Below, piece by piece: positions 2,039 through 20,811 of a stretch of 23,808 nucleotides of DNA. The stretch is taken from positions 1 to 23,808 of the forward strand of contig JBHLLG010000040.1 of NCBI GenBank assembly GCA_048885925.1, in the 5' to 3' direction. The notes beneath the pieces were generated by a model, which ran no database searches, was not told the DNA's origin, and saw nothing but the letters and a program-made list of their open reading frames with translations. The translations under genes and the position numbers were made by a program. The DNA is from Candidatus Hermodarchaeota archaeon (GTDB lineage Archaea > Asgardarchaeota > Lokiarchaeia > Sigyniarchaeales > SOKP01). Each line of letters opens with the position of its first letter. Position 1 is the first letter of the stretch.

Positions 2039-3433
2039 ATGAAATTTGGTGGTTCTTGTCTCAGAGATAAAGAAGCTTTTTATAAAATCCTCAAAATAAC
2101 AAGCATTTATAATAATGTAAAGAAAGTGTATGTAGCATCAGCTTTTAATGGTATAACAGATTTACTTCTAAAAACAGCAAATACCTTAGAAGATGATAAA
2201 GAAACAGACAAGTATATGGCATTAATCGAAAAAAGGCATATAGATGTAATTGAACAAATATTTACTGAGGATTCTGAATATTATTTGAAAGCAAAAGATT
2301 GGATTGATGAAAAATTAAGTGAGTTAGAGGATAGATTTGCTGATATTAAAGAATTTGGATTAGAACCATATTATAAAGATTACATATTAAGTTTTGGAGA
2401 AATTTTATCAACATACATATTAAACTGTTTCCTTTTAAGCAATGGATTAGATTCAGAATTTATCGCAACGAATAAATTAATTATTACGAATGACGATTTT
2501 AATAATGCTTACCCATTATATAATTTGACAAACTCTCGAATTGAGCGATTGTTAATCCCACTTATAGAGAATCCTAAAAAAGACACAATCATTTGTTTAA
2601 CAGGATTTATTGGTAGGAATAAATTAGGTGTTACAACAACCCTTGGGAGAGGAGGATCTGATTATACAGCAACTATTCTAGCACGAGGGTTATATGAAGT
2701 AGGAAATGATAAAAATATTAGAGTAATTCTATGGAAAGACGTTGATGGATTATTAGCAATCGATCCAAAATTTATTTCAAATCCCTCTCTCATTAAAAAC
2801 TTGGATTACGCTGAAGCAAAACATATTGCTAATTTCGGAGCAAAAATTCTTCATCCTAAATGCTTAGAAGCTATCGAAAATTATAAAATACCCTTAGAAA
2901 TACGAAATTTTGATAAACCATTAGAAACTAACTTTACAGAGATTTCTGAGAGAACTGATAGGGATCTTATTAAAGGGATTTCTGCTGTTGAATTTGCTAC
3001 AATTATAACAGTTATTTCCGGAAGTATGGTTGACGTTCCTGGTATTTTAGCTCAAATATTTAAAGTTATGAGTAAAAATAAAATTAGTGTTTCTTTAGTA
3101 GCTCAAAGTTCCTCTGAAGTAAGTACTTCTTTTATTATAAAAGAAGAGGAATCTGAGAAAGCTATTAATGCTTTAAAAAGTGCAGATTTTGTTTCAGAGT
3201 TTTTTAAAATAAAATGGGAAAAAGTTGCTGTGATTAATATAACAGGGCTTAAAATTCTTGAAACTAAAACAAAAGCAGAAATTTTTAATGCTCTTGGAAA
3301 GAAAAAAATTAGAGTAAGAGCAATTTCACAAAGTTATGATGAGTTAAATCTGTCTATCGTTATTGAAAGGGCCAAATTAAGTGAGGCTATAAATATAATT
3401 CATAATGATCTCTACGACATTTTAGATATTTAA
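2039..3433 (+). CDS. lysC: Aspartate kinase with C-terminal ACT domains
   Basis: KFGGS, VASAFNGITDLL, SFGEILS, TTLGRGGSDYTA, WKDVDGL..DP, FGAKILHP, and ACT repeats (PGILAQIFKVMSKNKISV). The true start may be a few codons upstream (see findings). Confidence 0.92.
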   Translation: MKFGGSCLRDKEAFYKILKITSIYNNVKKVYVASAFNGITDLLLKTANTLEDDKETDKYMALIEKRHIDVIEQIFTEDSEYYLKAKDWIDEKLSELEDRFADIKEFGLEPYYKDYILSFGEILSTYILNCFLLSNGLDSEFIATNKLIITNDDFNNAYPLYNLTNSRIERLLIPLIENPKKDTIICLTGFIGRNKLGVTTTLGRGGSDYTATILARGLYEVGNDKNIRVILWKDVDGLLAIDPKFISNPSLIKNLDYAEAKHIANFGAKILHPKCLEAIENYKIPLEIRNFDKPLETNFTEISERTDRDLIKGISAVEFATIITVISGSMVDVPGILAQIFKVMSKNKISVSLVAQSSSEVSTSFIIKEEESEKAINALKSADFVSEFFKIKWEKVAVINITGLKILETKTKAEIFNALGKKKIRVRAISQSYDELNLSIVIERAKLSEAINIIHNDLYDILDI

Positions 3434-3531: not shown

Positions 3532-4056
3532 TTAAGTTCTAGAATCAATAATTCGACGAGTTAATTCAGTAAAAGCCTCATCAACATTAACACCTGTTTT
3601 AGCAGAAGTTTCAATATAAATACTTCCCTCGTTTTCTGCAAAAGAACGTGCTTCGTCCCTATCAATTACCATTCCAACATCTTCAATTAAATCAGCTTTA
3701 TTCCCAATAAATACAAAAGGAATATTCTCACCAGCGAATTGCCTTATTTCAGTAAGCCATTTCCTTGTTTCTGCATAAGTTTGTTCTCGAGTTAAGTCAA
3801 AAACCAACAATGCTCCAGCTGCACCTTTATAAAAAGTACTACGTATGAATTCAAATCGTTGTTGACCTCCTATGTCCCAAATACTTAGTGTAGCAATTTC
3901 TCCCTGTCGAAATTCAACGTCTTTAGTTAAAATATCTACTCCAACAGTTAATTTATAGTTAGCTTGGAATCTATTCTTTATAAAACGTTGGACAAGGCTA
4001 GTTTTACCTACAGCTGCCGCCCCTGTTAATAATACTTTTAATTTAAAACTTGACAT
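3532..4056 (-). CDS. Rab-like Ras-superfamily small GTPase (Asgard eukaryotic signature protein)
   Basis: G1 GAAAVGKTS, G2 YKLTVGVD, G3 WDIGGQ, Rab-like FYKGA and LVFDLT, G4 NKAD, G5 ETSAK. No C-terminal prenylation Cys. SD-like GAGTGA 6 nt upstream of the ATG. Confidence 0.93.
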   Translation of the reverse strand: MSSFKLKVLLTGAAAVGKTSLVQRFIKNRFQANYKLTVGVDILTKDVEFRQGEIATLSIWDIGGQQRFEFIRSTFYKGAAGALLVFDLTREQTYAETRKWLTEIRQFAGENIPFVFIGNKADLIEDVGMVIDRDEARSFAENEGSIYIETSAKTGVNVDEAFTELTRRIIDSRT

Positions 4057-4893: not shown

Positions 4894-6849
4894 TTACCTT
4901 TTAGGTATATCTTTAAATTCTACCAAACTTGGGAATAAACCGAGATTTAAATGAGGAAAATACATTGCTTCTGCATATTCGTTTTGAAATGTTTTATTTA
5001 TAGCAATTTCTATATATTTGATTTTTTTTAATAACTGTTGAGCCTTATCCCTTATATTTCTATTCAATAAACAGTACTGTGCTCCAATTCCCGCAGCGTT
5101 TCCTATCTGAAAAATCTTATGATTTTCAATATCAGGAATCATTCCTATAAATTTAGCATTTTGAGCATTAATATAGTTACCGAAAGCTCCCGCTAAAAAG
5201 ATTTGTTCAATCTTAAGATTCCTCTTTAAATTAAGCATTATTATTCTTAATCCAGAATAAAAAGCAGCTTTTGCCATTTGGATTTGTCTAATATCACTTT
5301 GACTAATAGTTATTTCCCTTTCTAGAGAAGTTTCTTCCTTATTAGCAATAATAAATTCGAATTTTTTATCAGTTTTTATAAATCTTTCATGAGAAAGAAA
5401 TTCTCTATTAAAATTTCCACTTCTAGTTAAAATTTTGGTTCTTAACATCTCGGCTATTATATCAACCAAACCAGAGCCACATATACCTATTGGTTTCCTG
5501 TTTTTAATGGTAGTATAAGTTATATTAAAAGTCTTAGGATTAATTTCAACAGAATCAATAGCACCTGCAGCGGCTCTCATTCCATCTCTAATGTGAGCAC
5601 CTTCTAGAGCAGAACCTGCTGCGCATGATCCTACAGCTAGGATTTTATTATTTCCAACTATTAATTCTCCATTTGTACCAATATCAATTGCTAATGTAAG
5701 CTTTTTTTCATTATATATTTCTGAAGCGAGTATTACTCCTATAGTATCAGCACCAACATAACCAGCTATAATCGGTGCTGTATAAACGTTACCATTTTGA
5801 GAAATATTAAGATTTAACTCTTTAGCTTTAATATTTAGATTTTTTTGAATCACGGGTACAAATGGACTTAAGCCTATATTAACGGGATCTAATTTGAGAA
5901 ATATATGATGCATTACTGAATTTCCAACAACAGTGGCTTCATAGATTTGAGAAGGCTTAATATTTGCTTTTTCACACGTAATCTTTATGATATCATTTAA
6001 ATCATTAATTATTAAAGAATTTAATTTATGAAGATTTTCATTGCTTTCTTTTATATAAGTCAAGCGGGTTATTAGATCTTCTCCATAAGCAGTTTGACTA
6101 TTTAATTTCGAATCTACTGAATAAACCTTACCATTATTTAAATTTATAAGATACCCTACAATTGTAGTTGTTCCAATATCAAAAGCAATTCCAAAATTTT
6201 CTTCAATTGTATTATTCGGCTCACAGGCAATAATTTTAGAACAATCCCATATAACCAACGTAATTTTATGTTCATTTTGTCTTAATAAAAGGGGAATATC
6301 ATTCAAAAGATCAAAATCAATGTCAATTTTATTTTTTTTATTTAAATTTGGATATTTAGAATAAAGTGCTATTTGGATTCTTTCAAAATCAGAATAGGGT
6401 TCATCTAAAGAAGGTTTTTTAACTTCAATATAAACCTTTTTAATTGCTGGTTGAGTTCTTATCCCTTTACTTATCCCTGAAGTTAATATATTAAATTCTC
6501 TAAGTAAAAATTCACTTGGGATAAAAATTCTAAACTGAGGAGGATTAATTTCTTCTAAAATTTGTACTTTATTCATATCTAATTTTATTTCGCATGCTAA
6601 TCGCCAATCATTTTCAATTTCATCCTTATCCAATAATTTCTTTTCGGCATTAGTCAAAGGAGATAAATATTCACTTCCATTTTGAACTAATATTTTACAT
6701 TTCCCGCAGGTTCCTAATCCTCCACATAAAGATCTAATTGGGATTTTTAAATCAGCTAGAATTTCATATAAAGAATTGCTTCTTGAAAAATGTATCCTCC
6801 TAGAAATAGGTTCAAGATCTATGATAATATTTCTATTTTTTATTTGCAT
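4894..6849 (-). CDS. ASKHA-type ATP-dependent reductive activator of corrinoid proteins (RACo/DUF4445 family) with N-terminal 2Fe-2S ferredoxin domain
   Basis: CGGLGTCGKC...RLAC 2Fe-2S motif; FDIGTTT, YGEDLITR, GYVGAD, IDIGTNGE, GICGSG, LAGAFG, GNAA. Confidence 0.9.
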   Translation of the reverse strand: MQIKNRNIIIDLEPISRRIHFSRSNSLYEILADLKIPIRSLCGGLGTCGKCKILVQNGSEYLSPLTNAEKKLLDKDEIENDWRLACEIKLDMNKVQILEEINPPQFRIFIPSEFLLREFNILTSGISKGIRTQPAIKKVYIEVKKPSLDEPYSDFERIQIALYSKYPNLNKKNKIDIDFDLLNDIPLLLRQNEHKITLVIWDCSKIIACEPNNTIEENFGIAFDIGTTTIVGYLINLNNGKVYSVDSKLNSQTAYGEDLITRLTYIKESNENLHKLNSLIINDLNDIIKITCEKANIKPSQIYEATVVGNSVMHHIFLKLDPVNIGLSPFVPVIQKNLNIKAKELNLNISQNGNVYTAPIIAGYVGADTIGVILASEIYNEKKLTLAIDIGTNGELIVGNNKILAVGSCAAGSALEGAHIRDGMRAAAGAIDSVEINPKTFNITYTTIKNRKPIGICGSGLVDIIAEMLRTKILTRSGNFNREFLSHERFIKTDKKFEFIIANKEETSLEREITISQSDIRQIQMAKAAFYSGLRIIMLNLKRNLKIEQIFLAGAFGNYINAQNAKFIGMIPDIENHKIFQIGNAAGIGAQYCLLNRNIRDKAQQLLKKIKYIEIAINKTFQNEYAEAMYFPHLNLGLFPSLVEFKDIPKR

Positions 6850-7048: not shown

Positions 7049-10000
7049 TTGATAAAATTGCAGAATCCAGAAGAATTAGCACAAGAAGCATTAAAATTTT
7101 TAGATATTGCCCAAAAATTTGAAGAAGATAATAATATTGAGCAAGCTATTTCAACCTATCAAAAAGCTGCTGATTTTTTAAAGAAAAGTGGGTTTTTGAT
7201 GCATAGAATCGAGGAAATATATGATAGAATTAGTGAGTTGAAGGATTTTTTGCAGAAAGAAACTTTTTATCAACGAGCTCAAACAAAGGCTCAAGTTGAA
7301 CATCTTCAAGACCAAGCTTTTAATCTATTAGAAGGCGCGAAGAAGTTAGAATTTGAGGGATTTGTTGAAGATTCTATTCAACAATATATGTCTGCTATTA
7401 AATTATTAGATCAAACAGGTTGGTCTGAAACTCAGTTAGAAAACATTAAATCAAAAATTAATGAACTTGTAAGAAATTTAGAACAAAAAAAACTTTTAAA
7501 AAAAACTCATCAACAAGAATTAGAAGTGCAACAACCCATTACTCAAATACAACCAGATGAGAACCTTCAAGTCGTTGGAATTTTTGGGCAAAAAAGTGAT
7601 GCAGAAAAACTAAAAGTTATTGAAACATTTCGAAAAAAGAAAAAACATGAAGAAGATATACAAAATCAAGCATTTGCTCATATTGATGCAGCTAAAATAT
7701 TTGAAAAAGATAAAAAATTTGATAATGCAATAATGAATTATGAGAGAGCTATAGAATTATTAAAATCTATAGGGTGGAGTGCTCAGATCCGAAATATTCA
7801 AGTCATAATTGGAAAACTTCAAAGAGATAAAGCACAATTCGAAGCTTTGGAGGCTCGACAACAAGAATTAACAGTTCCATTAACCGGTGATATTGAAAAG
7901 CAGAAGATTATTCTTGAAAAAGAAGCAAAACAGAAAAAGGAAAAATTAACTGAATTTGAAGCAAAGAAAAAAATTGAAGAGGAGGTTCAATACAAAGCTT
8001 TTCAATTGTTAGATATTGGAAATAGACTTGAAAGAGAAAAAAAATATGATGAGGCAATTGAAAAACTTGAGCAAGCAGTTCAACATCTCAGGTCAATAGA
8101 TTGGGACACTTATATTCAACCGATTACAAAATTAATTAACAATGTAAAAGAGAAACAAAAGAGTGAACTAAAGTTAGAAGAAGAAAAAGAAAAAAGAGAA
8201 AGATCTCTTGTAGAATTAAAAGATTCCATATTTAAAAAGCAGAGGGAAGAGATAGTTCAATCAGCAAGTGAATTAGATACAAAAAGAAAAGCATATTTAG
8301 AAAGAAGAAAGCTTGAGAAGAAGAAAGAAGAAGATCTCTTTATAACCTTAGAAAAGGCAGATGAAATTTTAAAAGATAAAAATTTTGATGATGCAATAAA
8401 TGAATATAAAAAAGCATTAATTATTCTCAAAAGTTTGGGCTCAGTTTGGGAAGTTTATACTTCTATGATTAAAAACACAATCTCTAATATTGAAAAGTTA
8501 AAACACTCACAATTAGAAAAAAAATATGAGGAACAAAAGAAGTTGGAAGCAAGAGAATACGAAGAATTAGACTTCCAGAAACAAATAATTAATCTTTTAA
8601 AAAAAGAGCAGGAAAAACTAAAAGAAAAAGAGATTGTTATAAAAGACCGTGAGGAAGAGATCATACTTTTTGAGAATCGTAAAAAAACCGCTTTTGAGTT
8701 TTTGGATTCAGCTATAGATCATTTAAAGAATGGAAATTATGAAGAATCTATTAGAGCTTACCAGAATGCAGGTTCAATTTTTGCTGAAATTCGATGGACT
8801 GATGAGATCTCATTAATTGAGAATTCAATACAAGAGGTAGAGGATTTAATAAGAATACAAAAAATCCAAAAACAAAAGGCATTTCAAGATATAATAGAGA
8901 GACAAAAGGAAGAGGAAGAGTTCCAAAAGCAGATTTCAAATTATTTACAAGAAGAACGCGAAAAATTGAAAAAAAAAGAAGTTGAAATAATGGAACGTGA
9001 AAAAGAATCTAAATATCGGGAGAAAAAAAGAGAAGCAGGTTTTAAATTATTAGAAGAAGCACAGGTCAATGTAAAACAAGGAAATTTTGATAATGCTATT
9101 GAAATACTTCAGTATGCTATTTCTTTTTTTACTGATGCTCAATGGCAAAATGAGATTACTTTCATTCAAAATTCTATAGTAGAAATTGAAAATAAAAAAA
9201 GAGAAGCAGAAATACAAAAGCAAATCAAATTTCAAGCAGAATTAGAGCGTGAAAAACGTGAAAGGGTGTTTCAAGAAGCTATTACAAGGGAGATGAAAGC
9301 TCAACAAGCGGAATTTAAAAAAAGAGAAATAATATTAAGAGAAAGAGAAAAAGAAACTGCCTATCGAGAGAAAAAGAAAGAAGAGGCGTTTGATTTGCTT
9401 GACAAGGCTCAAGATTTTCTTTCTCATAATAAATTTGACGAGACGCTTGAACTTTATTACAATATAGCGAATATTTTTGCTCAAATTCAGTGGATAGAAG
9501 AAATTCCAATAATTCAAGAGGCAATTCAGAATATCGAAAATAAAAGAAGAGAGAATCAATTGTATAAACAAAAACTTTTACAAAAAGCTATCAAAAAAGA
9601 AGCTTCTAATAAAGCCTTTATCGAAAAAATTAAATATCAACGCGAAAGAAAAAAAATTGAAGCCATACAAGAGAAAGAAATGTTAGAAAAGCAGAAAAAG
9701 CTTTCAGCCCAGAATTTAAATAAACAACAAAAGGCATTTAAGTTGATTGAGGATGGAGATATCCTTATTACAAAAGAAGATTTTGATGGGGCAATAAGTA
9801 GTTATAATAATGCTGCAGAAATTCTAAAAGATATTGGTTGGGGAGAAGAATATTTAAAGTCATTAAAGGAAACTATTGATATGATAGAGTTACGTAAAAA
9901 AGAAAAAGAAAAAGAAAAACAAAAGCAATTTGAGATCTCATTAAAGCAACAAAAAGAAGACGAGTTATTTCAAAAAACAATTAAAGAATATATGCAAAAA

Positions 10001-13000
10001 GAACAAAAAAGACTAAAAGCAAAAGAAATTGAAGTTCTCCAAAGAGAAGAGTTACTTCAAAAAATGGAAAGTAAAAAGTTAGAAGCTTTTAAAATCATGG
10101 ATAATGCTGAACTTTTATTTAAACAAAGTAATTATGAAGATTCTATTAAAAAATACCAACAAGCTGAATTAATATTAAATGAAATAAATTTTCCTACAAA
10201 TGTAGTAAGGGAAATGATTCAAAAAGTTCAAGAGAGAAAGAGAGAAGAAGATATTTATAAAATAAATGAATTTGAGCAAAAAATCAGAAGGGAGCAAGAA
10301 GAATATTCATTTCAACAACAGATTTTAGAAAAAATTCAATTAGAAGAACAGAATATGAAAGCAAAACAAGAAAAACTAAGGAAACAGGAGGAATTGAAAT
10401 TATATAGAGAACAGAAAAGACAGAATGCATTTAGTCTTTTAGAAGAGGCTCAAAAACAAATTGAAAACAGTAATTTTGATAACGCAATCAAATTATATCG
10501 TGAAGCCGAAGTTATTTTCAGAGAAATAGAGTGGAATGAACAAATTGAATTGATTCAGAATTCTATTAATGTAATAGAGAATAAGAAAAGAGAGGCAGAG
10601 TTACAAAAACAAAAAGAATTTGAAATAACCCTTGAAAAAGAAAGACAAGAAAAATTATTTCACGAAAACCTTATTAAAGAGATGAAAATCCAACGTAAGG
10701 AATTACAAAAAAAAGAAATCCAATTTAGAGAACTGGAAAAGGAGTTAGCATATAGAGAGGAAAGAAAAAATTATGCATTTAACTTATTAGATAAAGCCCA
10801 AAATCATATTTCACAGGGGGAATTTGATAAATCAATTGAAGTTTATCATAATATAGCTAATATTTTTGCAGAAATTCAATGGACAGATGAAATTCCTATC
10901 ATTAGTAAAGCAATTCAGAATATAAAAGCTAAAAAGAAAGAAAAAGAATTGCTAAAACAGAAATCCTTTCAGGATGCAATAGAAAAAGAAAAAGAAGATT
11001 TTGCTTTTTTGGAAAAGATAAGACTCCTACAAGAAAAAGAAAAAGAAAAAGCTATAAAACAAAAGGAATTAATTCAAAGGAAAGAACTATTATCTTCTCA
11101 AGTCTTATCTAAGGAAGAAAAAGCCTTTAAATTGATAGATGAAGGTTATTCTCTACTTAATCAAAAGAATTATGATAAAGCGTTACAAAATTATCAAGAT
11201 GTAATAAAAATTTTAACTGGAATAGGATGGACGAGTGAATATTTAACAATACTCCAGAATAATATAAAAGAAATCGAAATTCGAAAACAACAAATTGAAA
11301 AAGAGAAAAGATTGGAAGAAGAATTATTAATTAAACGTCAAAAAGAAGAAGAACAATTCCAAAATAAAATTATAGAATATATGGAAAACGAACAAAAAAG
11401 ATTACGAGCTAAACAAATTGAAATCCAACGACAGGAAGCTCAACAGCGGGAAATGGAAAAGAAAAGATCAGATGCATTTAAATTGATGGATATAGCAGAA
11501 AATTTCTTTAACAAAAAACAATATGATCAAGCAATTGAAAAATATCGTCAATCAGAATTAATCTTAAACGAAATTGGATTTCCAACTAAGGCAATCACAG
11601 AAACGATTAATAAAACTCAAGAGAAAATTAGAGAAGAGTTCATTTTAAAACAAAAGGAGTTAGAAAAAAATCTTCAACAAGAACGTAATAATCTTAAATT
11701 CCAACAGAAAATAAAAGAAAATCTTAGATTAAATGAAATGAAAATGAAAGCAAAACAAGAAGAATTAAAAAAACAGAGAGAAAAACAAGCATATATGGAT
11801 AATAGAAAAGTAGAAGCGTTCGATCTTCTTAAAGAAGCAGAAACATACGTAGTTCAAACGCAATATGACAAAGCTCTTGAATATTATTATGCTGCAGAAT
11901 CAATATTAAATGAAATTGCATTTCCAACCCAAACCATTCGAGAAGTAATTCTTAAAGTTCAAGAGAAGAAACGCAAATATCAACTACAAAAACAAAAAGA
12001 GTTCGATATAGAAATGCAAAAAGAACGAGAGGAGTGGGAATTACAGCAAAAACTAGCAGCTAATTTACAATTAGAAAAAGAACGTTTGAAAGTAAAGGAA
12101 TTAGAGATTTTAAAGAAGGAGCAGTTAAAATCAAAACTCGAGAAAAGGAAAGAGCAAGCATTTAAAATGTTAGATGAAGCTGAACAATTGCTTAAAGCAA
12201 AAAATTATGATAATGCATTAGTTTGCTATAGAAAAGCAGAGACCATTTTAAATGAATTACAATTTCCAACAGATTCAATTAAGAATATGGCATTTAGAAT
12301 TAAAAAATTACAAAAACAAAAAGAAGAACAAGAAAGTTTGAAATATCAAAAAGAATTAGAGAGATTTGAAGAAGAAAGATTATTAAAATCCCTTATTGAG
12401 GAAAGAAAGTGGCAAGAAAGAGAAAGAAAGAAAGCCCAACAATTAGCACTTGAAGAACGAGAGAGGATTATTCAAGAACAAATGAGTGTGAGAGAATCAG
12501 CCTATTCTTTGTTAGAAGAAGCTGGGAATTATTTGAAACAACGAACTCCAAACTACAATCAAGCTATCTCTTTATATGTTCAAGCAAAGAACATTTTATC
12601 AGAAAATATTGGTTGGGAACCAGAAATAAATAATTTAGATGCATTAATTAAAGATTTACAACAAGAAGAAGCTAATTTTCTAGAAAAAAAACGTTTGGAA
12701 GAACAAGCTCGTTTGCAACGTGAATATGAACTTGCTCAATTTCAAGAAGAAGTGAGAAGAAGAAGATTAGAACAAGAAAAGGTAAAGAGAGAACAAGAAA
12801 AGCAATATCGGGATCTAATATATAAAAAGCAACACATAGAGCAAATAAGAGATGAAGGTTTAAGACTCATTGATGAGGGGAAAAAACTAGCTGCATATCA
12901 TAATTTTGAAAAAGCATATAAGAACTTTGAAGCTTCGATTTTAAAGTTCAGAGATATCGGTTGGAACGAAGAGATAAAATATATTGAAACTGAAATTAAA

Positions 13001-13426
13001 AATACAAAAATTTTAGAAGAAAAAGTAAAAAAAGATGAAAAAAGAATCCAAACAATCCAAGAACAGTTAGAAGAACAAAGAATTTTAGAAGTCGAACGTA
13101 TAAAAGCTGAAGAAGAAAAATTAAGAGGAACAATTGGTGAGGTTAGTGAATTAGCTGATGATCTAATAAGTTTGATTGAAGAAAGAAAAAAAGAACAAAA
13201 ATTAATAGAAGCAAAGGGCAAAGAGAAGATTAAGTATAAAGCAAAGCAATTCCGAAAGGAAATGACAAACTTAATAAAAATGAAACAAGAACTAATGGCT
13301 GAGATTACAAAAAAGGAAGAAAATGAAAGACTATTTGAAGAAAAGTTAGAAAAGTCTAAAGAAAGAGAAGAAGTCGACAATATTAAGAGAATGATTAAGG
13401 AAGCGGCTGAAAAGAAGAAAAAATAA
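7049..13426 (+). CDS. Giant (2125 aa) repeat protein: ~18 MIT/TPR-like helical modules separated by E/K/Q/R-rich helical linkers
   Basis: Recurring AFxLLxxA-x(6-7)-[FY]DxAIxxYxxA-x(4-6)-I-x-[W/FP] unit with a 114-117 aa period in the central region. Uninterrupted 6.4-kb ORF with TTG start. Confidence 0.85.
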   Translation: MIKLQNPEELAQEALKFLDIAQKFEEDNNIEQAISTYQKAADFLKKSGFLMHRIEEIYDRISELKDFLQKETFYQRAQTKAQVEHLQDQAFNLLEGAKKLEFEGFVEDSIQQYMSAIKLLDQTGWSETQLENIKSKINELVRNLEQKKLLKKTHQQELEVQQPITQIQPDENLQVVGIFGQKSDAEKLKVIETFRKKKKHEEDIQNQAFAHIDAAKIFEKDKKFDNAIMNYERAIELLKSIGWSAQIRNIQVIIGKLQRDKAQFEALEARQQELTVPLTGDIEKQKIILEKEAKQKKEKLTEFEAKKKIEEEVQYKAFQLLDIGNRLEREKKYDEAIEKLEQAVQHLRSIDWDTYIQPITKLINNVKEKQKSELKLEEEKEKRERSLVELKDSIFKKQREEIVQSASELDTKRKAYLERRKLEKKKEEDLFITLEKADEILKDKNFDDAINEYKKALIILKSLGSVWEVYTSMIKNTISNIEKLKHSQLEKKYEEQKKLEAREYEELDFQKQIINLLKKEQEKLKEKEIVIKDREEEIILFENRKKTAFEFLDSAIDHLKNGNYEESIRAYQNAGSIFAEIRWTDEISLIENSIQEVEDLIRIQKIQKQKAFQDIIERQKEEEEFQKQISNYLQEEREKLKKKEVEIMEREKESKYREKKREAGFKLLEEAQVNVKQGNFDNAIEILQYAISFFTDAQWQNEITFIQNSIVEIENKKREAEIQKQIKFQAELEREKRERVFQEAITREMKAQQAEFKKREIILREREKETAYREKKKEEAFDLLDKAQDFLSHNKFDETLELYYNIANIFAQIQWIEEIPIIQEAIQNIENKRRENQLYKQKLLQKAIKKEASNKAFIEKIKYQRERKKIEAIQEKEMLEKQKKLSAQNLNKQQKAFKLIEDGDILITKEDFDGAISSYNNAAEILKDIGWGEEYLKSLKETIDMIELRKKEKEKEKQKQFEISLKQQKEDELFQKTIKEYMQKEQKRLKAKEIEVLQREELLQKMESKKLEAFKIMDNAELLFKQSNYEDSIKKYQQAELILNEINFPTNVVREMIQKVQERKREEDIYKINEFEQKIRREQEEYSFQQQILEKIQLEEQNMKAKQEKLRKQEELKLYREQKRQNAFSLLEEAQKQIENSNFDNAIKLYREAEVIFREIEWNEQIELIQNSINVIENKKREAELQKQKEFEITLEKERQEKLFHENLIKEMKIQRKELQKKEIQFRELEKELAYREERKNYAFNLLDKAQNHISQGEFDKSIEVYHNIANIFAEIQWTDEIPIISKAIQNIKAKKKEKELLKQKSFQDAIEKEKEDFAFLEKIRLLQEKEKEKAIKQKELIQRKELLSSQVLSKEEKAFKLIDEGYSLLNQKNYDKALQNYQDVIKILTGIGWTSEYLTILQNNIKEIEIRKQQIEKEKRLEEELLIKRQKEEEQFQNKIIEYMENEQKRLRAKQIEIQRQEAQQREMEKKRSDAFKLMDIAENFFNKKQYDQAIEKYRQSELILNEIGFPTKAITETINKTQEKIREEFILKQKELEKNLQQERNNLKFQQKIKENLRLNEMKMKAKQEELKKQREKQAYMDNRKVEAFDLLKEAETYVVQTQYDKALEYYYAAESILNEIAFPTQTIREVILKVQEKKRKYQLQKQKEFDIEMQKEREEWELQQKLAANLQLEKERLKVKELEILKKEQLKSKLEKRKEQAFKMLDEAEQLLKAKNYDNALVCYRKAETILNELQFPTDSIKNMAFRIKKLQKQKEEQESLKYQKELERFEEERLLKSLIEERKWQERERKKAQQLALEERERIIQEQMSVRESAYSLLEEAGNYLKQRTPNYNQAISLYVQAKNILSENIGWEPEINNLDALIKDLQQEEANFLEKKRLEEQARLQREYELAQFQEEVRRRRLEQEKVKREQEKQYRDLIYKKQHIEQIRDEGLRLIDEGKKLAAYHNFEKAYKNFEASILKFRDIGWNEEIKYIETEIKNTKILEEKVKKDEKRIQTIQEQLEEQRILEVERIKAEEEKLRGTIGEVSELADDLISLIEERKKEQKLIEAKGKEKIKYKAKQFRKEMTNLIKMKQELMAEITKKEENERLFEEKLEKSKEREEVDNIKRMIKEAAEKKKK
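9035..12500 (+). repeat. Intragenic higher-order repeat (module order A-B-C-D-A'-B'-C'-D'-D''-D''')
   Basis: Conserved Phe codons at 9041, 9389, 9737, 10088, 10430, 10778, 11126, 11477, 11819 and 12161 give spacings of 348, 348, 351, 342, 348, 348, 351, 342 and 342 nt, i.e. a 1389-nt super-period. Confidence 0.85.
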
Positions 13427-13582
13427 TAAGATTCTTCTATCCTTTTTTCTTAATTTTAAAAATGCCTGATAAATGATAATTCTAGATTAATTACTTTATA
13501 TAAATAAAGAATTAACTGAAAGAATTTAAATTTTGAATATTAAATATTAATATTATAAAATTAAAAATTAAAGTAGTTAAAA

Positions 13583-15166
13583 ATGACAGAAAAAACAGAG
13601 GATATAGTTAAATCCCGAATGTATGCTCGACAAAAATTAATTGATGGATGGGATCAAGAAATTATTGATAAAGGAGTAATTATGATTATTGGTGTTGGTG
13701 CTTTAGGTTGCGAGATAGCTAAGGATTTCGCTCTTATGGGAATTGGTAAACTGATCCTTGTTGATCTTGACACCATTGAAACTTCCAATTTGTCACGACA
13801 GATGCTTTTTAAACCCGGTGATGAAGGTCGTCCTAAAGCTGAAGTCGCCGCAGAAAGATTGAAGGAGATGAATCCATACCTCAAGGTGGATTATTATTTT
13901 GAGAAGCTTCAAAAATTACCCATGTCCGTATATGAAGAATCCGATGTAGTAGTTGCAGCTCTAGATAATTTTAATGCTAGATTAGACTTGAATAAAATAT
14001 GTCTTCGCCTGAAGAAACCTATGGTAGAAGGTGGAACAGTGGGATTTGAAGGCCATGTACAGATTGTAATTCCTAAAGAATCAGAATTAAAATATAAAAG
14101 TAAAGAACAAGAAATTGATAATTTAGTCCAATCAAAACTTTGGGAGATAACAGAAAGCGAATATCCTGATTATTTCAAAGCACAGAGAAGAATTGAAGAA
14201 TTAGAGGAAGAAATAGAAAATATTAAAGCAGAAAGTATAAGCCCTCTGGTTCAAAGATTTCGTAAAGAAATTGAAATGGTTTTTGATTGGAAATATGCTC
14301 CAGAATTGTTAGATCAAACTCCATGTTATAGGTGTTTAGTCCCAATACCTCCAGCAGACGATAAACTTGTCGCAGCATGTACCTTAAAGGGCTTACCACG
14401 GAATCGAAATCATTGCGTCATAAAAGCTGAAGTGGATTTTGAAAAAATGTATGGTCATAAACCAGAACTTAATTTAAATGACGAAGTACTCAAATTGAAA
14501 GAACTAGCACAAATTGAATTAGAAAAATTAAGAGAACGTGTATTAAATGAAAATATTTCGGAGGAGAAAAGAGAAACATTAAACGAAGAAGAGATTAAGG
14601 AGTGGAAACGAAATATATATGAAACTTTTGGACCAGATTATAAATTTGAAGAAATGGAAAATATTCTTGGAAATAAAATTGCTGCTATACAGACAGTTAG
14701 CTCAGTAATAGCTAGCATCCAATCTCAAGAAGCACTTAAACTATTATTTAGAGTTAATGGTAGGAATATTGGTACTCCCATGGATCCACCTTATGTGAAT
14801 TATAATGGGATATATGGACAATTTGATCACTTAAATATAATAAAAAGAGAGGATTGCCTTGCTTGTGGAATAATTGAAGGAGAAGAGAATGTTCAAATTG
14901 TCGTTCCATTCGATGCAAAGATTGGTTATATTTTTGAAGCGTTGAAAGTAACTGGTTACGAATTAGATCCAGAATTATGGATGATTACAAATCCAATGAC
15001 AAAAGAAATCTATTGGAATCCTTATATGCCTTCGCTTAAAGATCCACATATAAAGTTAACCTCCTTAAAAATAAAAAGTAATGATATAGTTAGCTTAACT
15101 CCTTTAGGAAAAGCTTTAACAGAATCAGATATCAAGAAATATAATGTTGTTATTGCTTTTATGTAA
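13583..15166 (+). CDS. E1 ubiquitin/Ubl-activating enzyme (ThiF/MoeB adenylation domain, catalytic-Cys domain, probable C-terminal ubiquitin-fold domain)
   Basis: RMYARQ, GVGALGCE, VDLDTIETSNLSRQMLF, KAEVAA, LDNFNAR, GGTVGFEG; Zn pairs CYRC and CLAC; catalytic motif ACTLKGLPRNRNHC (Cys266) resembling UBA3/UBA2. Confidence 0.9.
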   Translation: MTEKTEDIVKSRMYARQKLIDGWDQEIIDKGVIMIIGVGALGCEIAKDFALMGIGKLILVDLDTIETSNLSRQMLFKPGDEGRPKAEVAAERLKEMNPYLKVDYYFEKLQKLPMSVYEESDVVVAALDNFNARLDLNKICLRLKKPMVEGGTVGFEGHVQIVIPKESELKYKSKEQEIDNLVQSKLWEITESEYPDYFKAQRRIEELEEEIENIKAESISPLVQRFRKEIEMVFDWKYAPELLDQTPCYRCLVPIPPADDKLVAACTLKGLPRNRNHCVIKAEVDFEKMYGHKPELNLNDEVLKLKELAQIELEKLRERVLNENISEEKRETLNEEEIKEWKRNIYETFGPDYKFEEMENILGNKIAAIQTVSSVIASIQSQEALKLLFRVNGRNIGTPMDPPYVNYNGIYGQFDHLNIIKREDCLACGIIEGEENVQIVVPFDAKIGYIFEALKVTGYELDPELWMITNPMTKEIYWNPYMPSLKDPHIKLTSLKIKSNDIVSLTPLGKALTESDIKKYNVVIAFM

Positions 15167-15252
15167 GTTCTTTTTATTATTTAAAAGATAATTATTAAAG
15201 AGAGGTTTAACTCATTCCTAAAAATAAGAAAGTAAAGCAAAAGGACAAACCA

Positions 15253-15768
15253 ATGAGTAAAACTTTATTTAAATTCATGAAAAGAGAGTTTACGCTTCGT
15301 GATAGGAAATTTCCTCCCATTGAAAAGATAAAAAAAACAAAAATAAAGAAGGGTGATGTTGTTTTGGATTATGGATGTGGTCCTGGAAGTTATACAATAG
15401 CTGCTGCAGAAATAGTAGGTAATACAGGAAAAGTGTATGCCGCGGATATTCATCCTTTAGCAATTGAAGAAGTCAATAAGAGGGCAATAGAGAGAGGAAT
15501 AAAAAACATTGAGACGATTTTAACAAGTTGTGATACAGAATTAGAGAGTTGTGTCATTGATGTTGTTCTATTATTAGATATTTACCACGATCTCTCAAAT
15601 CCTGAAGTAATCCTAAAAGAGTTACACCGTGTCTTAAAAAAAGATGGATGGCTCTCAGTAGATGATCATCATCTAAAGGATGATGAGATTGTAAACAATA
15701 TCACATCTACAGGTTTATTTAGATTTTATGAACAAGATGATAAACTCTTCAATTTCATTAAAATGTAG
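15253..15768 (+). CDS. Class I SAM-dependent methyltransferase
   Basis: Motif I VLDYGCGPG, VYAADI, ELHRVLKKDG. Ends TAG TAG TAA. Confidence 0.88.
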   Translation: MSKTLFKFMKREFTLRDRKFPPIEKIKKTKIKKGDVVLDYGCGPGSYTIAAAEIVGNTGKVYAADIHPLAIEEVNKRAIERGIKNIETILTSCDTELESCVIDVVLLLDIYHDLSNPEVILKELHRVLKKDGWLSVDDHHLKDDEIVNNITSTGLFRFYEQDDKLFNFIKM

Positions 15769-15798
15769 TAGTAATATAAAAATTGTCTTACCTTTCTT

Positions 15799-16404
15799 TT
15801 AATTCACTAATTTCTTTCTAACTAAATTTATCAAATCATCTATAAAGTATGATTCTATACCAGCATTTTTTCCTGTTAGAATATCACTTTCTAAATCGCC
15901 AAAATATATTACTTGTTCTTTCTTTACGCCATAATGATCTTCAATTTTTAAAAGGCCATCTGGTGCGGGTTTCCATTTTCTCACATCTTCTCTACCTACT
16001 ATAAAGTCTATTTTTTTAGCTATATTTGCTATCTCTAAAGCTCGAATTACTGAAATTCTTGTGTTAAGTGATAAAACAGCAAATTTAGTTTCTTTTTTGA
16101 CCCCGAATAATTCTTTATTTTTGATAAAAAAAATAGTTTCATTAATAGGTTGAGTTTCTTTTATATTTTCAAGCTCGTAATGTCGAATAATATCAAAAAA
16201 ATTTTCTAGTACTTGTTCATCATTCTTTTTAACGATACTATCTAAACACTTTGAGATTCTTTTGAAATCACAATTATCATTATATATTTGTTTATACTTC
16301 TTGATTAAAACATCTTTTAATGCAATCCAGTCTGCTGTTAAATTAACAATTGTTCCATCTAAGTCGAAAACTATAATTTTTTTATTGTCAAATATAATTT
16401 TCAT
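15799..16404 (-). CDS. HAD-superfamily hydrolase (phosphoglycolate phosphatase-like)
   Basis: FDLDGT (motif I), LSLN (II), KPAPDG (III), GDLESD (IV). Confidence 0.9.
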   Translation of the reverse strand: MKIIFDNKKIIVFDLDGTIVNLTADWIALKDVLIKKYKQIYNDNCDFKRISKCLDSIVKKNDEQVLENFFDIIRHYELENIKETQPINETIFFIKNKELFGVKKETKFAVLSLNTRISVIRALEIANIAKKIDFIVGREDVRKWKPAPDGLLKIEDHYGVKKEQVIYFGDLESDILTGKNAGIESYFIDDLINLVRKKLVN

Positions 16405-16497
16405 AATACTTTAATAGGTGTTATTTTCAATCTACTGAATTGAAATTATCATAACATAAAAAATAAAAATATGAAAGAGAAAATTAATTAAATTTCT

Positions 16498-17019
16498 TTA
16501 ATCCATGGCATATTTCTTAGTCCAAGCCGCTGCTTTAGCCTCAAACTTTTTCTGTGCTCTAAAATATTGTTCTCCTGCTTCATGATTTAACGGGTCACCT
16601 GGATTAAAGAAGGGAGGTTCAATATGCATCATCCCTTTTAAAGCTTCTATGATATTTGTAAGTGTTTTACTTGGAGTCCAACCTGAAGCTCCAGTACTAG
16701 CATCTACTTTTCCAACTAGATCAGGGTTAATTAGATCTAAACAAATATTAAGTTTTCCAGGAGGAATTGAGGAATCAATATTAGGGTGCCACATTAAAGT
16801 AACTGCGTATGCGTATGGGGGAGCAAAAGGGTAGTTTTCAGGAAACTTGATTTCAAATACAAACTTACCATCTGCATAAGGAGTTCCTTTCTTTCCTATG
16901 ATGGTAAGTCTTAAGTGATCAATACTTCTACCCCATGGTTCTAAAATAACCAGTGGATCATTTTTGTATGCCTCGATTGCCTCAGTATAGTCTGTTTCTT
17001 CTCTAATGATGATCACCAA
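16498..17019 (-). CDS. E2 ubiquitin-conjugating enzyme (UBC fold)
   Basis: GKKGTPYADGKF, FPENYPFAPP, WHPNID, catalytic ICLDL (Cys codon 16741-16743), WTPS, DPLNHEA and a C-terminal AAAWTKKYA helix. Start uncertain (TTG 17019, GTG 17016 or ATT 17007). Confidence 0.93.
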   Translation of the reverse strand: MVIIIREETDYTEAIEAYKNDPLVILEPWGRSIDHLRLTIIGKKGTPYADGKFVFEIKFPENYPFAPPYAYAVTLMWHPNIDSSIPPGKLNICLDLINPDLVGKVDASTGASGWTPSKTLTNIIEALKGMMHIEPPFFNPGDPLNHEAGEQYFRAQKKFEAKAAAWTKKYAMD

Positions 17020-20256: not shown

Positions 20257-20811
20257 TTACTGTTCTCTTCCTGAAATTATTGCTACTACTTCCCATTCAT
20301 TATTAGGAAGAGAATTGGCAGAGATATCAAAAAATTGAAACGCAAAAGGTCTTCCAAATATTTGTTCAACCATAAAACCGAAAGAACTTATTGTAAATAT
20401 AAAAATTCTTTTTAAAATAGATTCTGTGCTCGTATTGATATTTAATTGTCTTATAACATCCTCTACAACTTCAATTTCTTTTATATTATATTGATAATTA
20501 AAAACTAATTTAAAATCAACGGGAGTTGGTGCTTCCGGATCCGAAAATGATAGTCCTCTTTTTCGGAAATGAAAAAAATTGTTTAAATAAAAGGAAAATA
20601 TTTCCTCGTGATGGTCTTTTAAGAGATGAGAAATACGTGAGCGCTCTTTATATTCAGGCCAGTACTTTTGCATTAATTCCAGAAGTCTAGGATAATTTTT
20701 ATACTTATTTTCACTCTCTTTTTTTAGATAATTAAGTAATTGGTTCTTGAGTGGTTTAAACTGTGATTCTCGACCAACCCTAGTTATAAAATTTCGAAAA
20801 TTTTGGCTCAT
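20257..20811 (-). CDS. Hypothetical protein (184 aa)
   Basis: Non-overlapping ORF with ATG/TAA and globular-protein-like composition; no motif recognised. Confidence 0.7.
   Translation of the reverse strand: MSQNFRNFITRVGRESQFKPLKNQLLNYLKKESENKYKNYPRLLELMQKYWPEYKERSRISHLLKDHHEEIFSFYLNNFFHFRKRGLSFSDPEAPTPVDFKLVFNYQYNIKEIEVVEDVIRQLNINTSTESILKRIFIFTISSFGFMVEQIFGRPFAFQFFDISANSLPNNEWEVVAIISGREQ

Follow-up and report, generated by a model that had tools for sequence, protein, structure and literature searches.

A putative second ubiquitin-like E1/E2 pair and a giant MIT/TPR-like rod protein at one locus of a Candidatus Hermodarchaeota archaeon

Gene content and layout of the window

The window, that is, the whole stretch of 23,808 nucleotides that was analysed, holds the gene of a giant rod protein (positions 7049–13426, forward strand), which is translated from a TTG start into 2125 amino acids comprising 18 repeat modules; the corresponding database entry begins three codons downstream and therefore counts 2122 amino acids. 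The next gene, co-oriented with the giant and separated from it by a gap of 156 bp, encodes a UBA3-like E1 (13583–15166, forward strand; 527 aa). In the intergenic region ahead of this E1 (13427–13582, forward strand), an oligo-T tract past the stop codon of the giant is followed by a conserved promoter-like block, so that the T-rich tract and TATA-like motifs noted in a sequence-only reading of this DNA are indeed present. An E2 gene (16498–17019, reverse strand; 173 aa, with HPN at 78–80 and Cys93) is convergent with the E1 gene and lies 1.3 kb from its stop codon; between the two stand only a class I SAM methyltransferase (15253–15768, forward strand; 171 aa; Pfam Methyltransf_31, 3.3e-19) and a HAD-IA hydrolase (15799–16404, reverse strand; 201 aa; Pfam HAD_2, 5.6e-25). 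The open reading frame positions thus agree with the arrangement described in that reading. A Rab-like small GTPase is encoded at 3532–4056 on the reverse strand (174 aa; Pfam Ras, 6.1e-49).

Pfam searches of 15 open reading frames of at least 80 aa and of two small intergenic ones bear out the earlier remark that the window is devoid of a ubiquitin, RING or JAMM gene; the two small frames, searched as possible hidden Ubl or RING genes in the gaps, were assigned to no family, and the window has no tRNA genes. As a side observation, relatives' copies of these genes carry 30-nt intron-like inserts; no account of mRNA mini-introns in Asgard archaea, nor of a multi-MIT giant, was found in the literature searched.

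The two enzymes between E1 and E2 differ in their persistence. The methyltransferase is probably a bystander, as only three of the six further loci in this genus have it and all remaining loci examined are without it. No other gene stays directly beside E1 as persistently as that of the HAD hydrolase, which is next to it in 18 of 20 own-family loci (it is absent from one, G094, and a contig end intervenes in the other, G095); it also adjoins E1 in the locus of family f3 and, in genus g17, forms a tightly packed row with Ras and E1 (Ras-E1-HAD). Its top NCBIfam match is the pyrophosphatase PpaX (3.9e-19; 69 bits against a cut-off of 218), and the thought that it might assist E1 as a pyrophosphatase was set aside as a weak idea, because this score falls far under the cut-off.

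The conjugation enzymes and a candidate modifier

The E1 is of the eukaryotic, UBA3-like type that had been proposed for it. It matches Pfam ThiF at 2.7e-59 (200.6 bits against a cut-off of 28.1), its top sequence match is UBA1 (5.1e-41), its best Foldseek match is UBA3 (2nvu_B, E 2.2e-24) over a full-length alignment of 527 columns, and its relatives bear the JGI label 'ubiquitin-activating enzyme E1 C'. An adenylation domain is succeeded by a helical insert (residues 165–245), the Cys266 loop, a helical Cys domain (275–363) that is seen in the structural model, and a C-terminal ubiquitin-fold domain (434–527), which is modelled by AF2 as beta-grasp-like with pLDDT 80–93 and is the predicted recruiter of E2. 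Across 30 sequences the residues R16/Q17, G37xG39xxG42, D61, D63, R72, K85, D128, C248/C251, C266 and C425/C428 are invariant; these include the ATP-site residues (glycine motif, arginine finger and Mg/ATP-binding aspartates), two CxxC pairs (C248/C251 and C425/C428) and the catalytic cysteine, C266 (AACTLKG), whose counterpart in an alignment with human UBA1 is the catalytic Cys of PICTLKN.

The atypical insert that had been noticed in E1 amounts to about 80 aa (165–245) and is modelled as a helix at 174–188 followed by a 48-residue helix at 195–242, while a second insert of 25 aa (approximately 322–346) lies within the Cys domain. The E1 orthologues of family f4 are devoid of the helical insert and carry instead a fused, degenerate N-terminal ThiF domain in the manner of UBA1; the window E1 has no such fused second inactive adenylation domain, which occurs only in those orthologues. 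Moreover, no APPBP1- or SAE1-like partner subunit is recognisable among the five ThiF-family genes of the own genome, and the single-chain window E1 probably works as a homodimer.

The E2 matches Pfam UQ_con at 4.2e-26 (91.7 bits against a cut-off of 27), and its HPN motif is followed by the catalytic cysteine within the roughly 8–14 residues that characterize the UBC fold, in agreement with an alignment to Ubc1; H78, P79, N80, C93, W114 and P116 are invariant in 27 sequences. In comparison with yeast Ubc1, four residues are added between HPN and the cysteine and 13 after it, which substantiates the two loops reported around the active site; the canonical E2 of the own genome has part of both loops too. 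With 82–99% identity in the family and 70–76% in other families of the order, E2 is the most conserved of all genes in the block.

A canonical cluster is also present in the own genome, on contig C4, and consists of three Ubl genes, a 411-aa E1, a 175-aa E2 and a JAB protein. The window enzymes share 47% identity with its E1 (in the N-terminal domain) and 39% with its E2, and both E1s are equally good matches to eukaryotic E1s. The window E1 and E2 are a second pair that is distinct from the canonical archaeal cluster. Across the order, E1 is found at a best E of 1e-55 or lower in 132 of 150 genomes and E2 at 1e-50 or lower in 126 of 150; outside it, E1 is absent at 1e-55 from all 157 genomes searched, and E2 yields only paralogue-level matches of 39–47% identity in 32 of the 157. 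The orthologues of both enzymes therefore appear confined to this Lokiarchaeia-type order. Draft genomes from which both enzymes are missing do not count as independent evidence, since the two genes lie close together in the own family. No account of a second Lokiarchaeial E1/E2/Ubl set was found in the literature searched, although supplementary catalogues (such as those of PMC9192718 or the asCOG tables) may list the proteins.

The absence of a ubiquitin gene holds for the window but not for the genome, in which a likely cognate modifier is encoded on another contig (C34:24203-24457). This orphan Ubl of 83–85 aa matches Pfam ubiquitin at 36.7 bits against a cut-off of 25.4 and is 93–100% identical in the family and 73–93% identical across the order; it ends in ...TQAGG plus one residue in the own genome (...TQAGG-I), in ...TQAGG-stop in genome G020 and in GG-C in genome G004. 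It is found at E of 1e-5 or lower in 127 of 150 genomes of the order and, at 1e-8, in none of the 157 genomes outside. In G004, of family f4, the Ubl lies 1.4 kb from the E1 orthologue on a single 6.4-kb contig; similarly, in G020, of family f2, the Ubl, a 379-aa Ubl-domain protein and an E2 paralogue (68% identity; 13-nt overlap with the preceding gene) stand in one row. The Ubl adjoins neither E1 nor E2 in the own family or in three complete chromosomes of f2, and the E2 neighbourhoods of f2 and f4, in which Ubl, RING and JAMM genes were sought, contain unrelated genes only. The window enzymes likely use the orphan Ubl as their modifier. If the chemistry follows that of UBA3, UBA2 and UBA1, the Ubl would be trimmed to its GG end and adenylated by E1, which would then hold it in thioester linkage at Cys266; E2 would be brought in by the ubiquitin-fold domain at the C-terminus of E1, and the Ubl would move to Cys93 of E2 and finally to target lysines.

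The giant rod protein and its GTPase neighbour

The 18 modules of the giant recur with a period of 109–119 aa (about 116), far beyond chance, and only the first spacing is shorter (76 aa). Each module is a short three-helix MIT/TPR-like bundle of approximately 60 residues, and the bundles are joined by charged helices of approximately 57 residues, which consist to 63% of E, K, R, Q or D and show a weak heptad signal; lysine makes up 15% of the protein. In an AF2 model of three modules (pLDDT 94), one unbroken helix of 93 residues runs from each module into the next, and simple arithmetic from this model suggests a length of roughly 0.2 micrometre for the fully extended giant.

The module resembles both TPR and MIT domains. 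Helices 1 and 2 carry the TPR/MIT-type motif A..L..A...G.Y..AI..Y..A, and the strongest signal of a module sequence profile is a generic TPR hairpin, beside which VPS4A and archaeal MIT domains match weakly (E 0.006–0.07). Pfam assigns the protein to TPR_2 (6.5e-20) and MIT (1.6e-12) by summed scores, with no single stretch passing; for MIT, the sum is 47.8 bits, and individual matches in a genome search reach at most 22.3 bits, with the cut-off at 30. The only compact Foldseek matches of the module are the MIT domains of Vps4, VPS4A-CHMP6 (2k3w, TMt 0.54), MITD1 and calpain-7, the local matches having a probability of 0.97–0.99, E of 0.26–0.5 and an rmsd of about 4 Å, and the three-module rod model has no match at E of 1e-3 or lower. 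A TPR superhelix comprises at least three adjacent 34-residue repeats; the hairpins of the giant are single, with helices of about 57 residues between them, and do not stack into such a superhelix. Against the Protein Atlas, a 414-aa piece of the giant retrieves only generic TPR or 'hypothetical' clusters with low recognition (best score 0.91). All 207 database relatives are named Promethearchaeota or Lokiarchaeota, and relatives have from 4 to at least 21 modules. The giant evolves fast, with identities within the genus of 54–65% as against 83–90% for E1 and 92–99% for E2; the module number shifts in blocks, and conservation on the module surfaces is confined to core residues.

The Rab-like GTPase contains the conserved motifs GAAAVGKTS, WDIGGQ, GNKxDL and ETSAK, and all of its top 60 solved relatives are Rab or Ypt proteins, the best being Rab22A (9.7e-39), Rab11, Rab14 and a Thorarchaeota Rab (4.7e-37). 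It ends in ...RRIIxSRT, with no prenylation cysteine at the C-terminus. The GTPase gene is present in all 11 own-family loci that reach far enough upstream; in the sister family f2, an orthologue of 67–70% identity stands divergently upstream of the giant homologue in three of three complete chromosomes, and a Ras-family GTPase likewise precedes a paralogous giant on contig C3. By its gene neighbourhood, the Rab-like GTPase appears to be the conserved partner of the giant. Asgard genomes hold many small GTPases, so some adjacency of this kind is expected by chance.

Interpretation of the locus and its relation to known systems

The sequence-only reading had assembled the giant, E1 and E2 into a three-gene module in which the giant would serve as a scaffold, an E3-like adaptor or a lysine-rich substrate specific to this E1 and E2. 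The genes are present and E1 and E2 are an intact pair; the giant as their dedicated component did not stand. The check proposed for it, conservation of the gene neighbourhood, gave a divided result, since in 20 of the 22 informative own-family loci the giant precedes E1 on the same strand, whereas the genes are dispersed in f2. In addition, the single f3 genome holds a giant-like gene, E1, HAD and E2 within 12 kb, albeit rearranged; the f2 homologue of the giant lies 30–50 kb from E1 in three of three complete chromosomes, with E2 at least 1 Mb away; window-type E1, E2 and the giant are missing together from genome G115; and the high lysine content would suit a substrate. However, the adjacency of giant and E1 is not specific, because synteny in the family extends over the whole 24-kb block, with its Asp kinase, GTPase, RACo, HDAC and two genes of unknown kind. 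E1 appears to have its own promoter, as the oligo-T tract is followed by a block, AAAGAGTTTAAATTTTGA...ATTATA, that lies 20–65 nt before the ATG in seven of seven loci of the genus; outside this block the spacer is unconserved. Moreover, a gene of about 510–526 aa on the opposite strand separates the giant from E1 in eight of 20 loci (six of the eight were checked by open reading frame listing, and the one tested is a subtilase), two own-family genomes (G126 and G087) retain E1-HAD(-E2) but have a giant neither at this locus nor elsewhere, E2 is surrounded by unrelated genes in f2 and f4, and the module surfaces are unconserved outside core residues. A dedicated role of the giant in this conjugation pathway is thus quite unlikely. 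It is also very doubtful that the giant is a multivalent MIT platform that binds the C-terminal helices of ESCRT-III and thereby organises or measures the polymers. The three-helix bundle with MIT domains as its sole compact structural matches, the weak profile matches to VPS4A and archaeal MIT, and the presence in the genome of Vps4 and of two ESCRT-III genes, the products of which have presumably MIM1-like tails with an amphipathic helix at the end, would agree with this proposal; however, a three-helix bundle is a simple fold for which Foldseek offers nothing at E of 1e-3 or lower, sequence comparison points most strongly to the generic TPR hairpin, and the giant is not encoded near the ESCRT genes (contigs C1 and C2).

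Alternatively, the window E1 and E2 could be redundant or specialised paralogues that act on the canonical Ubls of contig C4, the orphan Ubl being served otherwise or left unconjugated. This is unlikely, although both E1s match their eukaryotic counterparts equally well, most of the genomes examined show no linkage of the Ubl to E1 and E2, and G115 (92% complete) keeps the Ubl where window-type E1, E2 and giant were not found, so that canonical enzymes might serve it or the genes might lie in the unassembled part. On the other side, E1, E2 and Ubl have the same order-restricted range, the Ubl stands beside the E1 orthologue in G004 and beside the E2 paralogue in G020, Ubl and E2 alike show the exceptional conservation that a modifier and its enzyme would be expected to have, and the canonical Ubls already adjoin an E1, an E2 and a JAB protein of their own. 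Two systems side by side are the best explanation, and a rather probable one: a conjugation pathway of E1, E2 and the likely orphan Ubl, and a giant rod that would be tied to the Rab-like GTPase and not to this pathway. The most plausible role of the giant is that of a spacer, a tether or a multivalent platform that would operate with the divergent GTPase. Highly improbable is the more ambitious account in which two undescribed eukaryote-like systems are functionally coupled in the own family, namely an order-specific Ubl-E1-E2 pathway, with the E1 of one family independently fused in the UBA1 manner, and a Rab-like GTPase whose effector or tether, a rod of about 0.2 micrometre with MIT-like knobs, would double as a platform for Ubl conjugation; if true, it would represent a prokaryotic forerunner of GTPase-controlled long tethers combined with ubiquitin-type marking.

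Descriptions of ubiquitin systems in Asgard archaea usually feature a single Ub-E1-E2-RING-JAMM cluster. One well-sampled order appears to possess an additional, complete-looking second pathway, the parts of which are dispersed over the genome and conserved like housekeeping genes. Its E1 occurs in two natural forms, a single-domain form with a helical arm and a UBA1-like fused form, and the step from homodimeric to pseudo-heterodimeric enzymes in the evolution of eukaryotic E1s thereby becomes directly testable. The giant defines a new architecture of MIT-like knobs on single helices. To our knowledge, GTPase effectors in Asgard archaea are essentially unknown, and the gene-order tie of the giant to the Rab-like GTPase provides a concrete candidate. 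At the same time, the analysis corrects the attractive yet weakly founded three-gene module.

Several known systems can be set beside those of the locus. The loop insertions next to the active site of Cdc34/UBE2R and UBE2G have a likeness in the 13-residue insert that follows the cysteine of the window E2 in comparison with Ubc1 and UbcH5; the loop of the window E2, NPDLVGKVDASTGASG, is not markedly acidic, however, and an extra insert of four residues precedes the cysteine. In its domain order (adenylation domain, crossover/Cys loop, helical Cys domain, ubiquitin-fold domain), the window E1 equals UBA3 and the active halves of UBA1, UBA6 and SAE2, but, in contrast to UBA3 and SAE2 with their partner subunits, it has no recognised APPBP1- or SAE1-like partner gene. 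The f4 orthologue, unlike the window E1, resembles UBA1 in its fusion with a degenerate N-terminal ThiF domain. Neither insert of the window E1 occurs in the canonical archaeal E1 or in the f4 orthologue, and the 80-aa arm precedes the CxxC of the Zn site.

The modules of the giant share their three-helix bundle and motif with the MIT domains of Vps4, MITD1 and calpain-7 and with single TPR hairpins, from which the giant differs in having 18 copies in one chain and linker helices that extend helix 3 of one module without a break into helix 1 of the module after it. Among eukaryotes, golgins and EEA1 are long, rod-like Rab effectors and tethers, and other rods are built from spectrin repeats or single alpha-helices. 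Like these, the giant is very long, mostly helical and repetitive, and its gene stands beside that of a Rab-like GTPase; it has no sequence relationship to them and no membrane anchor, and its GTPase has no lipidated tail. In contrast to two-stranded coiled-coil rods, the giant would consist of knobs on single helices, and its suggested tie to the GTPase is one of gene order.

Archaeal Ub-E1-E2-(RING)-JAMM clusters are documented for Caldiarchaeum subterraneum and Asgard archaea (PMC5654768, PMC9192718). The window pair belongs to the same enzyme families as these clusters, one of which the own genome carries on C4, and it differs from them in having no adjacent Ubl, JAMM or RING gene, in a presumed Ubl that is solitary elsewhere in the genome, and in the restriction of the set to one order.

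Gene order and the linkage of the giant gene to E1 and E2

The full 23.8-kb contig (~28% G+C) belongs to a draft genome of 3.9 Mb and 95% completeness, and the relatives of its proteins carry the source names Promethearchaeota or Lokiarchaeota archaeon. An unknown ORF and a PHP-domain protein lie upstream of an aspartate kinase (2039-3433, +), which is followed by a small GTPase (3532-4056, -) and a RACo-type activase (4894-6849, -). Next come the giant (7049-13426, +) and E1 (13583-15166, +), then a methyltransferase (15253-15768, +), a HAD hydrolase (15799-16404, -) and E2 (16498-17019, -). Beyond E2 the contig encodes an M1 peptidase, a PDCD5-like protein, a 184-aa protein of unknown family, a deacetylase and a CoiA-like nuclease. 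The 184-aa protein (20257-20811, -) is syntenic at 60-89% identity across the family, and no Pfam or NCBIfam family matched it. The coordinates and distances of the sequence-only reading are all correct, and a family search of ORFs and small intergenic ORFs bears out its remark that the window holds no Ubl, RING or JAB gene.

That reading joined the giant, E1 and E2 into one ubiquitin-like conjugation module, a proposal that the gene neighborhoods partly support. The giant stands upstream of E1 in the same orientation in all 20 loci of the first survey and in 20 of 22 informative loci overall; moreover, a single f3 genome holds the giant, E1 and E2 inside 12 kb, and three chromosomes of the sister family f2 place a giant homologue within 30-50 kb of E1. 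However, synteny in the family extends over the whole block around the three genes, the giant stop is followed by an oligo-T tract, a promoter-like block ahead of E1 is kept in 7/7 genus loci, and an opposite-strand gene of ~510-526 aa separates the giant from E1 in 8/20 loci (six verified, two deduced from gap size); the single such gene checked for family is a subtilase. Two genomes (G126 and G087) retain E1-HAD(-E2) with ordinary genes upstream and have no module-family match in the genome. In f2 and f4 the E2 gene lies at least 1 Mb from E1 amid unrelated genes (G022, G032, G011, G013). Loss of linkage among the three genes in related genomes had been named as half of what would refute the module, and the sister families show this loss.

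The giant repeat protein and the Rab-like GTPase

The giant consists of 18 modules with a period of ~116 residues, arranged in a four-module super-repeat. In an AF2 model of three modules, built from 92 module triplets of the giant and its orthologues (pLDDT 94, pTM 0.43), each module forms short helices of 18 and 17 residues and then a 93-residue helix that spans the linker and continues as the first helix of the module that follows. With 63% E/K/R/Q/D, 27% hydrophobic residues and a weak heptad signal, the linkers are more consistent with stiff single helices than with a classical coiled coil. Sequence profiles of the modules match the TPR consensus and give weak hits to MIT domains; a Foldseek search with the model returned nothing at E <= 1e-3, and all of its compact local matches are MIT domains, so the term MIT/TPR-like describes the fold of the giant and is not a claim of membership.

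All 207 proteins of the giant family in the search come from Lokiarchaeia-type sources, and their module number varies by genus, with 4 in g12, 7-8 or 14 in g6, 14 in g4, g7, g8 and g10, 18 in g1, and at least 20 in g3, where forms of 2927 aa occur. Within the genus, the length stays constant at 2120-2127 aa with a sequence identity of only 54-65%, and conservation is concentrated on core residues.

The neighborhood of the giant also includes the window GTPase, which is Rab-like (the best 60 solved relatives listed are all Rab or Ypt) and has no C-terminal Cys. In each of the three complete f2 chromosomes, the orthologue of this GTPase lies divergently upstream of the best giant homologue (988-1165 aa), directly adjoining it in one; the orthologue is 67-70% identical to the window GTPase, and other Ras paralogues reach 30-36%. 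In the window's own family the GTPase (84-100% identity) is present in all 11 loci that extend far enough upstream. A second giant of the module family (1783 aa) occurs on contig C3 of the same genome (C3:63189-70439; L017:3189-10439), directly behind a Ras-family GTPase and a proteasome alpha subunit. Because the giant/GTPase neighborhood is conserved, the giant is read, from gene order only, as a long spacer or tether tied to the window GTPase.

The enzymes E1 and E2 and short inserts in their relatives

The best sequence match of E1 is the active adenylation half of UBA1 (5.1e-41), and the best structural match of its model is UBA3 (Foldseek, E 2.2e-24, 527 columns). In an alignment of 30 E1s (29 window-type sequences and the canonical E1 of contig C4), every sequence keeps the ATP-site residues, two CxxC pairs and Cys266, which aligns with the catalytic Cys of UBA1. 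The model (pLDDT 77) presents a Rossmann core, a disordered Cys loop, a helical Cys domain and a confidently predicted C-terminal beta-grasp-like domain, from which fold an arm protrudes, composed of a helix at 174-188 and a 48-residue helix at 195-242. This arm and a second insert (~322-346) are present in f1, f2 and f3; neither the genome's own canonical E1 nor the f4 orthologues have them. The f4 orthologues are ORFs of 792-980 aa that begin with an additional ThiF-like domain bearing a degenerate glycine motif (L075:8889-11267, -; L076:1613-4555, -; also L079 and L080). These fused orthologues are alike to UBA1 in layout, with inactive and active adenylation domains joined, and the arm and the fused ThiF domain are mutually exclusive across the eight E1 sequences aligned. 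We infer that the window E1 is a homodimer, in which the arm may provide dimer contacts.

E2 forms a full UBC domain (HPN at 78-80, Cys93) and carries, relative to Ubc1, a 4-residue insert ahead of the Cys and a 13-residue insert behind it. It is the best conserved gene of the block, at 82-99% identity in the family and 70-76% in f2, f3 and f4, as compared with 66-90% in the family for E1, and with 57-72% for RACo and 69-82% for the deacetylase. The most persistent direct neighbor of E1 is the HAD hydrolase, whose closest named relative is the pyrophosphatase PpaX, at a score far under the cut-off of that model; genus g17 has Ras-like GTPase, E1 and HAD genes in tight succession, with spacers of 3-8 bp (L072:8381-11221; L081:1426-4340).

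In several relatives, the E1, E2, Ubl and GTPase genes contain inserts of exactly 30 nt (one of 31 nt) that bring in-frame stops or shift the frame, with intact and highly conserved coding sequence on both flanks. They lie at nt 122-123 of E1 (L037, L047), nt 205 (L063, L062) and nt 400 (L102) of E2, nt 224 and ~208 of Ubl (L101 and L076, respectively), and nt 193 of the GTPase (L065). Every insert has a hairpin of 5-10 bp. At the five sites inspected for exon pairing (E2 nt 205 and nt 400, both Ubl sites and GTPase nt 193), ~3-4 exon bases just 5' of the insert can be read to pair with bases right after the hairpin, leaving a ~3-base bulge at the 5' junction, less clear-cut in the GTPase, in what would be a bulge-helix-bulge-like shape. 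Where an insert is common to two species, at two sites, its sequence has diverged and the stem is preserved. Search tables suggest further inserts, such as +60 and +90 nt in E2 genes, and the lengths of 488 and 476 aa given to some E1 genes in the database are consistent with truncation at such inserts. Judged from sequence, the inserts look like candidate small spliced introns in Asgard protein-coding mRNAs and merit separate follow-up; small spliced introns of protein-coding genes are known in archaea from cbf5 of Crenarchaeota (PMC2738675).

A candidate modifier and the proposed order-specific conjugation set

Within the genome, the ubiquitin family is matched best by a solitary frame of 85 codons on contig C34 (C34:24203-24457; L010:1447-1701) that ends in ...TQAGG-I. 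This orphan Ubl is detected in 127 of the 150 genomes of the order, at 93-100% identity in the family and 73-93% over the order, and is missing from 157/157 genomes outside the order at E <= 1e-8. In the f4 genome G004, it lies 1.4 kb from a fused E1 orthologue on a contig of 6.4 kb, with two small ORFs between. In the f2 genome G020 (L096 = G020:C630, 366-2452), a row is formed by a Ubl terminating exactly at GG, a 379-aa protein with a Ubl domain at residues ~271-353 and an unknown N-terminal part, and an E2 paralogue (68% identity) that starts inside the gene before it. On the strength of its shared range, its extreme conservation and these two links, the orphan Ubl is the best candidate modifier, and we infer its pairing with the window-type E1 and E2, although one genome (G115) keeps the Ubl while window-type E1 and E2 have no match there.

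The orphan Ubl frame begins with ATT in place of the ATG of other genera and has TGA TAA stops immediately upstream, an arrangement identical in all 6 genus loci read, which suggests a non-canonical start codon or another mode of translation initiation. Domains of the same type also lie inside open frames of great length, the longest reaching 4221 aa in G126 (L103 = G126:C1, ~7354-7581), and in 452-778-aa frames of further genomes.

On C4, the canonical cluster combines three Ubl genes with those for a JAB protein, an E1 of 411 aa and an E2 of 175 aa. A third system on C41 (C41:18485-23015; L016:4485-9015) is a JAB-E1-E2-like row that encodes an AAA/CN-hydrolase protein of 791 aa and a JAB protein, then E1-like and E2-like proteins of 294 and 192 aa, and resembles bacterial-type E1-E2-JAB sets.

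As counted from the search tables, window-type E1 occurs at a best E <= 1e-55 in 132/150 genomes of the order and window-type E2 at E <= 1e-50 in 126/150. Among 157 other Asgard genomes, no window-type E1 was found at 1e-55, nor was window-type E2, for which 32 genomes gave only paralogue-level matches (39-47% identity). No description of a second Ubl-E1-E2 set, of its two E1 forms or of the giant's architecture was found in the literature searched, including passages of PMC9192718 and PMC10936438. Although the enzyme families themselves are known, the proposed pathway is a new variant, namely a second Ubl-E1-E2 set that is dispersed and order-specific and has an E1 of two architectures, and the giant is a new architecture from known elements.
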